Shown: positions 27,299-46,474, numbered from the stretch's first letter. The stretch is DNA of 64,000 bases from an uncultured Verrucomicrobiota bacterium (GCA_903922605.1 CAIXUG010000086.1:3384-67383), one strand, 5' to 3'. Notes: generated by a model from the letters alone, not told the origin. Translations and numbers: made by a program.

Positions 27299-29242
27299 GT
27301 GAAACCTCCTGGAAGCCGCCCAAGCCGCCTTGTATGGCTGCTGCTATTGGCCGCCTGGTTTCCCCTGCCCGGTTTGTGGGCCGCGACCGTGACAACTGTC
27401 ACCACCAACCTTTGGTCGCTACAGCCACTCCAGCATCCGGCCATTCCGCCGGCGTCCGGTCCCAGCGAGTGGCGTAACAATCCGATTGATGCGTTTGTCG
27501 CCGACAAGCTCCGGCAACTCGGGCTGCAACCCGCTCCGCCCGCCGATCGCGGCACGCTCCTCCGACGGCTCAGCTTTGACCTGATTGGTCTGCCACCGTC
27601 GGCGGAAGAGACCGCCGCCTTCCTCCGCGACTCGCGCGGCGACGCTTACGAACGGGCCGTGGACCGCCTGTTGGCCTCCTCGCACCACGGCGAACGTTGG
27701 GCGCGCCATTGGCTGGACGTCGTGCGCTTCGGTGAATCCCAGGGTTTTGAGTACGACCGCATCCGCGAGCACGCCTGGCGGTACCGCGATTACGTGATCC
27801 AGGCCTTCAACGACGACAAGCCTTACGACCAATTCATCCGCGAACAGCTTGCTGGCGATGTGCTGCTGGAAGCAAACGCCGTGAGCGTCATCGCCACGGG
27901 TTTCCTCGTTGCCGGACCTTGGGATCAGGCCGGGCACAGTTCAGCCAGCGCGAGCGTGCGCGCGATGGTCCGCGAGGCGGAACTGGAGGACATTGTCGGC
28001 ACGGTGGCGCAGACGTTTCTGGGCGTTACGCTCAACTGCGCCCGCTGCCACAACCACAAGTTCGACCCCATCCCGCAGCGCGACTATTACCGAGTCAAAG
28101 CCGTGTTTCAGGGCGTGAACCACGGCGACCGCCATTTCCCCGGAGGCAGTACCAACGACTGGAGTTACGCGGCAAACGCCAGCCAGCCCGAGGCCACGTT
28201 CATCCTGAACCGCGGCGAGCCCGACAAACCGAAGGATCAGGTGACACCCGGGGCACTGGAGGCGCTCGCCGCCCATTCTGGCGAGCTTGGTTTGGCCGCA
28301 GATTCTCCCGAAGGCGAACGCCGCCGACGCTTCGCGGACTGGGTTGCGTCACCGGAAAACCCGCTCACCGCACGCGTCATCGTGAACCGCGTCTGGCAGC
28401 ACCATTTCGGGCGCGGGCTCGTAGCCACGCCGAACGATTTCGGGAAAATGGGCGAACCGCCTTCACATCCTGAACTGCTCGACTGGCTCTCCGCGTGGTT
28501 TGTCTCACCCGACGGCGCCAACTGGAGCCTGAAGCGGCTGCATAAGCTCATTGTCACGAGTGCCGCTTACCAGCAGTCATCAGTAATCAGTAAATCAGTG
28601 ATCAGTGAGTCGGTGACTGCCAAGCGCTCACCTGCTGGAGAACTGAATGCTGCTTCACCGATTACTGAATCACCGGCCCTCCAGCGCGATGCCGACAACC
28701 GCCTGCTTTGGCGCTTCACACCGCACCGGCTGGAAGCGGAGGAATTGCGTGACGCGCTGCTCGCACTGAGCGGCGAACTGAACCCGCAGATGGGCGGACC
28801 CGGTTTCCGTCCGTTCCGTCATGTCACCAACGGCGGCCAGAACGAATACTTCGCCTCCGATCCCGCCGGCGCGGAGTTCAACCGGCGCACCATTTACCGC
28901 ATCTCCGTACACTCCGCCCGTGATCCGCTGCTCGACTCGCTCGACTGCCCCGAATTCTCGACCCGCACACCGGTTCGTGCCAACACCACGACTCCCTTGC
29001 AGGCGTTGTCGCTGATGAACGATTCCTTTGTGCAACGGCAGGCGGCGAAGCTCGCTGAACGTGTGCAGCGCGAAGCCGGTCCAGATCTGAAATACCAGGT
29101 CGATCAGCTCTGGTTCCTCACCTTGGCCCGCGAACCGAAACCGGCGGAGCGACGCGATGCGTTGAAACTTGCCCGTGAACAGGGGATGGCGAGCGCCGCC
29201 TGGGTGCTGCTCAACTCCAACGAATTTGTCTTTGTGCGATGA
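27299..29242 (+). CDS. DUF1549/DUF1553 (PSCyt2-PSD1) protein, copy A (no large central module)
   Basis: Sec leader. Boxes [59 protein letters not shown]-terminal PSD1 boxes NRVWQHHFGRGLV...[10 protein letters not shown]...[10 protein letters not shown]. Confidence 0.9.
   Translation: MKPPGSRPSRLVWLLLLAAWFPLPGLWAATVTTVTTNLWSLQPLQHPAIPPASGPSEWRNNPIDAFVADKLRQLGLQPAPPADRGTLLRRLSFDLIGLPPSAEETAAFLRDSRGDAYERAVDRLLASSHHGERWARHWLDVVRFGESQGFEYDRIREHAWRYRDYVIQAFNDDKPYDQFIREQLAGDVLLEANAVSVIATGFLVAGPWDQAGHSSASASVRAMVREAELEDIVGTVAQTFLGVTLNCARCHNHKFDPIPQRDYYRVKAVFQGVNHGDRHFPGGSTNDWSYAANASQPEATFILNRGEPDKPKDQVTPGALEALAAHSGELGLAADSPEGERRRRFADWVASPENPLTARVIVNRVWQHHFGRGLVATPNDFGKMGEPPSHPELLDWLSAWFVSPDGANWSLKRLHKLIVTSAAYQQSSVISKSVISESVTAKRSPAGELNAASPITESPALQRDADNRLLWRFTPHRLEAEELRDALLALSGELNPQMGGPGFRPFRHVTNGGQNEYFASDPAGAEFNRRTIYRISVHSARDPLLDSLDCPEFSTRTPVRANTTTPLQALSLMNDSFVQRQAAKLAERVQREAGPDLKYQVDQLWFLTLAREPKPAERRDALKLAREQGMASAAWVLLNSNEFVFVR
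28575..28675. repeat. In-frame palindromic heptamer-lattice element, copy in DUF1553 gene A (degenerate)
   Basis: Left array tcagtaa tcagtaaa tcagtga tcagtga gtcggtga. Right arm tcaccgattactgaatcac (28655-28673) is complementary to gtgat...tcggtga (28598-28616). Encodes SSVISKSVISESV...SPITESP. Confidence 0.7.
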
Positions 29243-29739
29243 ACGTCCTGAACAACTTAGGTGAGGTCTATTCGCAAGCCCTGTTGCGGTTAAGGAACCA
29301 TTCCAACCTTCCCAACACAGGATTGCCCGAGTCCGAAAGCTGGTGCTTCACCCTTTATGCCATCGATCGTGACAAGCGCTCCATGCTACTGAACACCCTC
29401 TACAAGGCGCTAATAATGGATTTCCAAATAATCAACCTCTCGCTGAATGGCCCAACGCCTTCAGGTCCGGTCATCGATGAAAGGGCCAATCACGTCGATA
29501 GAGGTTTATCATACGCAGTCTCAGGCCTGCTGAACGGAGGCTGGCAATATCATGTGTTGTGGACTCGCCAGCAATCGTTGCCGGTGGAGTTCCTCAATGA
29601 ACTTTCTCGTTACCTGCTGCTGCTCGGCTCGGCGTGGGATTCAGTATTGGCTGGCGACATTGACAACGTCCGCGAAGAGGCGGAACGCGATTACGCTGGA
29701 AGGTTCGATGAGGATCTTCCCGAGGAGGCGCATGCTTAG
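29239..29739 (+). CDS. Orphan 166-aa hypothetical protein (low GC, no leader, acidic C-terminus)
   Basis: ATGA overlap with upstream stop and 8-nt overlap with the downstream start. First 100 nt ~50 % GC by hand count versus ~64 % in the flank. Uses tta/ata/aat/tat codons. No recognisable family. Confidence 0.5.
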   Translation: MNVLNNLGEVYSQALLRLRNHSNLPNTGLPESESWCFTLYAIDRDKRSMLLNTLYKALIMDFQIINLSLNGPTPSGPVIDERANHVDRGLSYAVSGLLNGGWQYHVLWTRQQSLPVEFLNELSRYLLLLGSAWDSVLAGDIDNVREEAERDYAGRFDEDLPEEAHA

Positions 29740-45679: not shown

Positions 45680-45688
45680 AAGCGGCCC

Positions 45689-46474
45689 ATGAAAACCCCC
45701 ACCGAGATCCGTCGCGCCTTCACGCTCATCGAACTGCTGGTGGTCATTGCGATCATCGCGATCCTGGCCGGCATGCTCCTGCCGGCGCTGGCCAAGGCCA
45801 AGGCGACCGCGCAGAAGTCGCTGTGCGCGAGCAACGAGAAACAATGGGGCGTGGCACTGGCCATGTACGCCGGGGATTTCCAAGATTACTTTCCGGACAA
45901 CCGGCAGGGGTATGACCTGAGCTGGATGAGCACAAATTTGGCGGCTTTCTGGGAGCATTACCTCATCAAATCAGACATCCCGAAATCCAAGGCCGACAAG
46001 AAGGCGGCGAACAACGTGCTCTTTTGCCCGACGGACGAATGGCACCGACAGGTTGACCTGGATCGCATCGGCGACCCTGCCGTGGAGAAAAGCCCGATTC
46101 TCACCGGCTTTTTCTACCTCCCCGGCCGCGCAACCAATGGGGCGGGAGCCTGGCCCTATAATTCCGAAGGGTTGGGAGAATGGGCGGCTCGCACGAAAAT
46201 GGGGGGGCAATTCAGCCGGGCCCCGGTATTGATCGATCGGCTGCAAGGACAGGGGCCGCGCACCACCAACGTTTACGATTCACGCCTGATATGGGTGGCC
46301 CCGGATGCCGGCAAGAATTGGAAAACCGCCAACCATGCCGGCCCCGGAGGCGCGCCCACGGGTGGCAACTTCCTTTTTGAGGACGGTCACGTGGACTGGA
46401 TGAACGGCAAAAGAGTGAGCCTCGGATCAGGCAGCGCTCCCTGGCAGTGTTTCTACAAGATCCCCATCGACTGA
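45689..46474 (+). CDS. Prepilin-type N-terminal cleavage/methylation domain protein (DUF1559-like)
   Basis: [35 protein letters not shown] leader/helix. C-terminal [11 protein letters not shown] box. 9 nt after DUF1501 copy D. Confidence 0.85.

Follow-up and report, generated by a model that had tools for sequence, protein, structure and literature searches.

Four old PSCyt2-PSD1/DUF1501 gene pairs in a same-strand array of an uncultured Verrucomicrobiota bacterium

Planctomycetota and Verrucomicrobiota rank among the major degraders of glycans in soils, lakes and seas, and the PSCyt2/PSD1 and DUF1501 proteins are among their largest unexplained gene families. The question of what these proteins do, and why their genes travel together, is raised by a stretch of 64,000 nucleotides (nt) from an uncultured Verrucomicrobiota bacterium (GCA_903922605.1, CAIXUG010000086.1:3384-67383; hereafter the window), in which four genes for large PSCyt2-PSD1 proteins, each with a DUF1501 gene downstream, form an array at 27299-46474. 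The pairing itself is not new: it was published in 2012 and 2017, with arguments from signal peptides, twin-arginine leaders and the CxxCH motif and with F5/8 type C (F5/8-C) and Laminin-G inserts, and carbohydrate-binding modules and sulfatase neighbours were also noted for such pairs (Kamneva et al., 2012, PMC3542564; He et al., 2017, PMC5615132). No functional study of PSCyt2/PSD1 or DUF1501 was found in the searchable literature, which agrees with the original prediction, made from the sequence, that neither family has an established function. The locus is a further instance of a published, still uncharacterised module that is very common in these bacteria, and its interest lies in the open question on the family rather than in the locus itself. 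Added here are the co-evolution of the large and small proteins, the pair as a unit of inheritance, a DUF1501 fold without the formylglycine motif, a large-protein fold unmatched in known structures, and the finding that the pair has no fixed third partner.

The reading to which we lean, with slightly better than an even chance of being right, is that the array holds four anciently diverged copies of a known two-gene module of the Planctomycetes-Verrucomicrobia-Chlamydiae (PVC) bacteria, each encoding a periplasmic binder or haem protein plus a hydrolase, with specificities that differ from pair to pair. Twelve genes, all on the plus strand, were delimited at 27299-46474 from the open reading frame (ORF) list, translations, start-codon inspection and a junction table. 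Pair A consists of the genes for the large protein A_L (27299-29242, 647 residues) and the small protein A_S (29732-31159); pair B of B_L (31156-33849, 897 residues) and B_S (33864-35318); pair C of C_L (35764-38343, 859 residues) and C_S (38352-39830); and pair D of D_L (41332-44136, 934 residues, the start being chosen at 41332) and D_S (44165-45679). The DUF1501 partner lies downstream on the same strand after 14, 8 and 28 nt in B, C and D, and after an accessory gene in A. The profile check proposed in the original prediction recovered all four pairs (E-values 1e-82 to 1e-143). PSCyt2 (PF07583) and PSD1 (PF07587), in this order, match every large protein at 1e-82 to 1e-89 (4.6e-84 and 4e-84 for A_L) with 274-298 bits against gathering cut-offs of 28.5 and 29.8. 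DUF1501 (PF07394) matches every small protein at 1e-126 to 1e-143 (A_S 6.7e-143, B_S 7.6e-141, C_S 1.9e-143, D_S 5.5e-126) with 421-479 bits against a cut-off of 27, and profile positions 1-390 of 390 are covered. The sequence boxes quoted in the prediction are present in the alignment of the four large and four small proteins, with minor deviations in A (NPIDAFVADKL) and D (ending in ARL). No copies of these families occur in the window beyond the four pairs, and a contig identical to the window is present in an independent sample.

The array is real and inherited, and whole pairs come and go as units. The closest genome representative, a metagenome-assembled genome of an uncultured Verrucomicrobia bacterium (CAIVQH010000060; L027), has 87-90% nucleotide identity over the region and the order GH32, permease, A_L, A_S, B_L, B_S, acc2, C_L, C_S, D_L, D_S and pilin-like gene (acc1 to acc3 denote the accessory genes described below), after which it continues with a convergent gene for a TIM-barrel protein with a twin-arginine translocation (TAT) signal; there, A_L is separated from A_S by 25 nt and C_S from D_L by 3 nt. 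A second relative (JGI Ga0590114_0000004; L206) has the order A_L, A_S, acc2, C_L, C_S, acc3, D_L. It is without acc1 and the whole B pair (window 31156-35318), and the ATGA junction into acc2 (L206 13389-13841) is preserved; paralogous DUF1501 genes have similar 3' ends, and recombination between these could explain such loss or gain of the B pair. Protein identity among the array paralogues is 42-56%, and DNA repeats between the copies are 60-75% identical. External pairs closer than any array paralogue number 24 of 52 for C_L, which has numerous near relatives in other phyla, and 35 of 52 for C_S, A and C being nearer to pairs of other genomes than to their array neighbours, and the four pair lineages are already distinct in L027. 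Because of these identities and the closer external pairs, the array is regarded as an assembly of old lineages and not as a recent amplification.

Co-duplication of the large and small genes was put forward for testing with the original prediction, and it is borne out in the main. Large-protein distances, taken from the conserved N- and C-terminal blocks only, correlate with small-protein distances over 60 adjacent pairs (r 0.91; 0 of 999 Mantel permutations as high), and among the 24 permuted assignments, compared with 52 external pairs, the cognate one ranks first (r 0.889). The permutation test resolves C strongly and A moderately, and the grouping ((A,C),(B,D)) is found in both subunits. 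B and D are not separated from each other: a swap of the two is nearly equal to the cognate assignment (r 0.886 vs 0.889), because the sample is without close external relatives of either.

The behaviour of the module elsewhere was followed in 80 genome loci retrieved with C_L, whose contents were counted within +/-10 kb. In nearly all of these loci the large gene is directly followed by the small gene. One pair is found at 45 loci, a large gene only at 15 (mostly cut-off or short contigs) and two or more large or small genes at about 20; two pairs within 20 kb occur at about 12 of the about 80 loci, and four pairs only in the lineage of this array. The families are very abundant: each query has at least 8000 close database clusters (all 8000 candidates that were scored passed), over 100 clusters share 79-93% identity with C_S, and each large-protein domain occurs 41 times in Rhodopirellula baltica. 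A census of the genes flanking 52 pairs revealed no recurrent third partner, the commonest neighbours being an NPP-type phosphodiesterase (5 of 104), a sulfatase (4 of 104) and assorted esterases. On a Saccharobesus megaplasmid (L082/L083 set) the pair adjoins GH88, pectate lyase, TonB receptor and cytochrome c/b genes, and on a Catenovulum megaplasmid of the same set it adjoins genes for a c-type cytochrome, a beta-propeller protein and a fucose permease; both hosts, marine bacteria that degrade algal polysaccharides, lie outside the PVC group, and a horizontal transfer of pairs to glycan-degrading Gammaproteobacteria is suggested.

Whether the twelve genes act as one unit is approached from their junctions, which are as originally predicted: five overlaps, short gaps of 8-28 nt and two gaps of about 130 nt. 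ATGA overlaps occur at 29239, 31156, 35315 and 35764 and an 8-nt overlap at 29732, where the start of A_S lies within acc1 and is preceded by GAGGAGG; the non-overlapping junctions measure 14, 8, 126, 130, 28 and 9 nt, the only two long ones lying on either side of acc3. The spacing is compatible with coupled translation, and the run is probably co-transcribed. The rival that survives best, doubtful though we find it, holds that several transcription units are merely co-oriented, with a split at least at the two long gaps. The gene between these gaps is an insertion when compared with L027, the pairs are of different evolutionary origin, and a module that is single at most loci must be able to work alone. 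This is opposed by the overlap or close spacing (28 nt or less) of 9 of the 11 junctions, by terminator-like sites that are not above chance (15 found, 16.8 expected) and by the 3-nt gap between C_S and D_L in L027.

As to what each pair does, the large proteins carry Sec-type leaders, as judged by eye and as had been proposed, that of B_L with a lipobox-like VSAC. All four have CARCH at the end of PSCyt2 (residue 247 in A_L); the box C-x-x-C-H-x-H-K-x-D is invariant in 60 of 60 large proteins, and its C, C and H also in 42 of 42 homologues. The central modules were described in the original prediction as absent from A, of a separate type in B and discoidin-like in C and D. A_L has indeed none (its nearest homologues mostly have a Laminin_G_3 insert), and the D_L module, scanned alone, is of F5/8 type C (31.6 bits against a cut-off of 28.2); that of C_L is F5/8-type-C-like at E 1.6e-4, below the Pfam threshold, and the 340-residue module of B_L matched no recognised family in the Pfam scan (best F5_F8_type_C, E 0.12). 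A second CxxCH in D_L, CAACH at 42472-42486, lies inside the F5/8-C module; it was dismissed as probably fortuitous, being kept in neither the L027 nor the L206 orthologue. The AlphaFold2 model of A_L (predicted local distance difference test, pLDDT, 80.6; predicted template modelling score, pTM, 0.84) is mostly helical with a small beta unit. A likeness to phycobilisome linkers was set aside as noise (local fold matches of about 70 residues, E > 0.5), and a sequence search of the PDB with the large protein found nothing. The invariant box fits a c-type haem site and a Cys/His metal site equally well, and a haem at the CxxCH may be present, judging by the motif alone. For the proposed haem or binding subunit, the motif is invariant and the predicted fold is not that of a cytochrome.

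The possibility that the pair is a redox module, in which the large protein is a true c-type cytochrome of an electron-transfer or oxidoreductase pair and DUF1501 acts on, or is activated by, the redox step, was argued by Kamneva et al. (2012, PMC3542564). It draws on the invariance of CxxCH, on the Sec-type export that periplasmic haem ligation requires, on the many homologues that add an N-terminal PSCyt1/Cytochrome_CBB3 domain, on the cytochrome genes beside the pairs of Saccharobesus and Catenovulum, and on the ResA/TlpA-like thioredoxin inside the array. We consider it unlikely. None of the four large proteins contains PSCyt1 or has a match to a cytochrome family of Pfam, no match to a cytochrome fold was obtained with the confident model, and the additional invariant H, K and D after CxxCH suit a metal or active-site box equally. 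Moreover, the sulfatases and LtaS, matched by the fold of the small protein, are hydrolases or transferases that are not known to need a redox partner.

The leaders of the small proteins (LNRRHFLF in A_S, PSRREFLW in B_S, LNRRDFLR in C_S, TSRREFLW in D_S) show RRxFL followed by a hydrophobic stretch, as fits the TAT-type export that was, and is, predicted for them, and the motif RR.FL is invariant in sets of 50 and 60 diverse DUF1501 proteins. The AlphaFold2 model of C_S is modest (pLDDT 62.6, pTM 0.71), with core strands that are confident. Foldseek matched it to 138 PDB chains at E <= 0.001 (best about 1e-6, probability 1.00), the best 50 of which are sulfatases, LtaS/LtaP and one uncharacterised alkaline-phosphatase-superfamily protein; the TM-scores are just 0.3-0.36, because the model is mediocre. 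In sequence and profile searches the DUF1501 element 'ildqP.AAL..DLK.RGLl..TlV.f.TEFG' aligns with the sulfatase element '...LK..GL.d.TlVvFtSDxG', which sets Glu397-Phe of DUF1501 at the metal-binding Asp-His/Asn of sulfatases; the similarity to PDB sulfatases and LtaS by sequence or profile is marginal (E 0.04-1.6). Pfam Sulfatase (PF00884) has no match in the small proteins at E <= 0.01, and no C/S-x-P-x-R formylglycine motif is conserved in the four, which contain only scattered, non-homologous matches. DUF1501 has the alkaline-phosphatase/sulfatase superfamily fold, as originally proposed, without the formylglycine motif. Invariant among 60 diverse DUF1501 proteins are, in C_S numbering, S82, D88, K90, D146, H161, W353-D354-x-H356, D380, E397-F-G-R400, R411-D412-H413 and D437, a plausible metal/nucleophile set.

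The same fold would also serve nutrient scavenging, in which DUF1501 proteins would be periplasmic phosphatases, phosphodiesterases or non-formylglycine sulfatases for organic phosphorus or sulfur and the large proteins their scaffolds or chaperones. TAT export is known from some other phosphoesterases, DUF1501 lacks the formylglycine motif, and the neighbours that recur most often beside the pairs, though still rare, are genes for NPP-type phosphodiesterases and sulfatases. We give this little credence, less than the redox module: carbohydrate-binding-type modules are embedded in many large proteins, dozens of paralogues per genome, such as the 41 of R. baltica, are hard to explain by phosphorus and sulfur alone, and no pho-type context exists at this locus. 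Recent local amplification of one pair into redundant copies, for which the tandem same-strand order and the common boxes could be cited, is so improbable that we treat it as ruled out by the protein and DNA divergence, the closer external pairs and the four lineages already distinct in L027.

The reading of four old pairs of differing specificity can be cast as a mechanism. The large protein would be exported by the Sec route as a mostly helical PSCyt2-(variable beta-sandwich module)-PSD1 protein, and the small one by the TAT route as an alkaline-phosphatase/sulfatase-superfamily enzyme, folded and metal-loaded in the cytoplasm; once in the periplasm, the two would form a cognate complex. Catalysis, the hydrolysis or transfer of an ester-type substituent, would fall to the small protein; the large protein would recognise the substrate through its swappable central module and would also contribute a metal site at CxxCH, either haem c or thiol/His. 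The run would be co-transcribed, with re-initiation at the overlapping or near-abutting junctions. Each of the four pairs would have its own specificity, the substrates probably being derived from glycans and taken up into the periplasm; a substrate-specificity series is plausible because the central modules differ and the divergence is old. A glycan context is provided by the GH32 gene and sugar ATP-binding cassette (ABC) transporter upstream here and in both relatives.

Several observations weigh against this reading. Complex formation, haem attachment, metal content, catalysis and substrate are all inferred. The A_L model has no significant fold match in the PDB (best E 0.03, TM-score about 0.1), the predicted large-protein fold is not that of cytochrome c, and the C_S model, at a pLDDT of 62.6, does not allow the active-site residues to be positioned. 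Shared species history accounts for part of the co-evolution signal, and the permutation test does not tell B from D. The genes flanking the 52 pairs elsewhere are heterogeneous, no family being found in more than 3 of 55 or 2 of 49, so that the glycan link is contextual and weak. Shine-Dalgarno-like sequences precede few array genes only, and the promoter and terminator scan of the window, at chance level, is uninformative.

If the reading were extended to the family, the pairs would be an unrecognised class of obligate two-protein periplasmic enzymes, with a non-formylglycine catalyst of the alkaline-phosphatase superfamily, a new-fold haem or thiol-His partner with a swappable glycan module, and the DUF1800-DUF1501 pairs as a stripped-down version. 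This wider proposal is speculative, and the odds are clearly against it. If true, dozens of such pairs would be in use in parallel with glycoside hydrolases and sulfatases in PVC bacteria and, through horizontal transfer, in some degraders of algal polysaccharides, and this array would be a natural four-member specificity series. Beside a fructan-type uptake locus, the array brings together, in little space and syntenic order, four old paralogous pairs that differ in their central modules. Natural variants in its relatives, which have or lack the B pair and the thioredoxin, make it a convenient test bed for cognate-pair specificity.

The nested accessory genes had been taken as part of the system, a claim that fails for two of the three. 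acc1 (29239-29739, plus strand, 166 residues, without leader) is found only in this genome among the three arrays, A_L being followed directly by A_S in L027 and L206. It overlaps both A_L and A_S, its guanine-plus-cytosine (GC) content is 0.529 against about 0.64 around it, and neither it nor 35 homologues have a Pfam or NCBIfam match. Its uncharacterised family (125 representative clusters, about 148 residues, without leader, in unrelated contexts) has invariant H21, N66 and N70 and an AWDxVLAGDID box; at this locus the gene is a lineage-specific, stray low-GC insertion. acc3 (39957-41201, plus strand) encodes a membrane-anchored protein with HEAT repeats and a TlpA/ResA/DsbE-like thioredoxin domain (WCPGC; Pfam AhpC-TSA/Redoxin, E 1e-16 to 1e-17; NCBIfam ResA/TlpA/DsbE matches all below cut-off), which L206 has and L027 lacks. 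In cytochrome c maturation the CxxCH cysteines are reduced by thioredoxins of this kind; acc3 suits a CxxC(H) client in the periplasm, and may or may not relate to the surrounding CxxCH proteins. acc1 and acc3 are regarded as later insertions and the pair of large and small genes as the unit. Only acc2 (35315-35767, plus strand, 150 residues), a putative SnoaL_3/DUF4440 (NTF2-like) lipoprotein (Pfam E 2.3e-6; leader with lipobox-like AVGC), is kept at the same position in all three arrays, here with ATGA overlaps on both sides. The prepilin-like gene (45689-46474, plus strand; N_methyl E 4.3e-7, TIGR02532, SBP_bac_10 weak), for an N-methylation protein weakly like DUF1559, ends the same-strand run, as originally noted; it is kept in L027, and homologues lie near such pairs in seven other loci. 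The stable companions of the array are acc2 and this gene only.

A separate peculiarity of the large genes lies in a PSD1 loop after 'S-A-T-Y-R-Q', which has 11 residues in most homologues and holds an in-frame insert of 26-34 residues in A_L, C_L, D_L and all four L027 large genes. The inserts are arrays of the heptamer TCAGTRA with an inverted copy, encoding SVIS(E/K)SV...LITDSLITE, and were located on the plus strand at 28580-28668 in A_L (encoding SVISKSVISESV...SPITES; -33 kcal/mol, z -2.7), 37682-37781 in C_L (-49.3 kcal/mol, z -6.5) and 43461-43556 in D_L (-44 kcal/mol, z -6.9). The homologous site in B_L (33254-33284, plus strand) has a short TCGTAAA heptamer array and no inverted arm, while the L027 orthologue of B has a full hairpin. 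In L027 the inserts lie at about 3189-3330, 7410-7535, 11957-12055 and 16256-16380, and in L206 at 15767-15895 and 21557-21676; RNA folds over all sites range from -33 to -60 kcal/mol, and the hairpins are kept in orthologues despite changed arm lengths. The insert loop is disordered in the A_L model. In the window the motif occurs only at the insert sites (8 matches, 0.08 expected), and an Rfam scan of the window was empty. Heptamer arrays were found in at least 120 metagenome contigs, most of a GC content of about 0.54; 97 of 120 matches lie outside long ORFs and two inside PSD1 genes. The inserts look like a dispersed palindromic repeat family tolerated in-frame here, resembling in-frame palindromic elements such as the Rickettsia palindromic elements (RPEs). 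The host genes are only about 50% identical though the insert position is common to them, which gene conversion between tandem paralogues or target-site preference would explain.

Upstream, A_L starts 43 nt after the BPD_transp_2 permease gene of the fructan-type uptake locus, in agreement with the original prediction; this plus-strand block (periplasmic sugar-binding protein, GH32 and permease, 22374-27255) is kept with the array in L027 and L206. In the plus-strand ORF 22374-23876 Peripla_BP_4 matches only from residue 216, and the 5' part overlaps a minus-strand PRAI (trpF) gene (22185-23903 region), so the sugar-binding gene is really shorter, about 317 residues as called in L206. Genes for a TAT-signal xylose-isomerase-like TIM-barrel (weakly IolE-like), a double DUF1080 (3-keto-disaccharide hydrolase) and a GFO/IDH/MocA oxidoreductase were observed at 46508-50742 and 20919-22160; these families are typical of PVC periplasmic sugar-oxidation routes. 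At 12086-16973 a 973-residue protein with cytochrome c554/c3-like haem motifs and tetratricopeptide (TPR) repeats is encoded, followed by an FG-GAP/ASPIC (UnbV) protein, and a heptamer tandem repeat (GAATTTC x 4.6) lies at 51204-51235 within a ketopantoate-reductase-like ORF (50871-51851, minus strand).

Among known systems, no SusC/SusD pair of the Bacteroidota-type polysaccharide utilisation locus was found among the genes scanned (about 9.9-61.5 kb). Mono-haem c-type cytochromes share the invariant CxxCH and Sec-type export with the large proteins, which differ as helical proteins of 650-1000 residues with no cytochrome c domain or structural match. The S1 formylglycine sulfatases and relatives in the alkaline-phosphatase superfamily (choline sulfatase 7ptj, LtaS 4uor, sulfamidase 4mhx) have in common with DUF1501 the core fold and a conserved helix-strand element ending at the metal-binding position; DUF1501, in contrast, has no C/S-x-P-x-R, has Glu-Phe in place of the Asp-His/Asn of (S/T)D(H/N)G, and possesses its own invariant residue set, with sequence similarity at E 0.04-0.2.

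Closer are the DUF1800-DUF1501 pairs of Proteobacteria, Actinomycetota and Deinococcota (Goncalves et al., 2016, PMC5122149), in which a larger helical protein is followed at once by a twin-arginine DUF1501 protein and the unit is inherited and transferred. Examples with the same gene order were found on a Miltoncostaea plasmid (L085, 2642-5393) and a Thermus plasmid (L084), and the C-terminal half of DUF1501 from DUF1800 pairs aligns with that studied here (hhalign E 1.2e-5). DUF1800 differs from the large proteins in having neither CxxCH nor central modules. Queried by hhalign as a single sequence and then as a 115-sequence alignment, it gave weak, collinear matches to both halves of the large protein, suggestive of a homology with PSD1 but insignificant (E 0.1, 0.16 and 0.032, probability <2%), in which the same motif recurs: 'GLPPtP.E...LL' and 'NPLTaRv.VNRvW...gWSlK.LHRLI..SatY'.

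The closest system is the PVC module of DUF1501 with PSCyt1/2-PSD1 itself, whose PSCyt/PSD domains are reportedly treated in Studholme's work of 2004. The module and this array have in common the three Pfam families, the order of large gene then DUF1501, a large protein with a signal peptide and a small one with a twin-arginine leader, optional F5/8-C or Laminin-G inserts, and many copies. The array differs in that PSCyt1 occurs in none of its four large proteins, in its acc1 and acc3 insertions and in-frame hairpin repeats, and in the head-to-tail arrangement of four pairs in one same-strand run.

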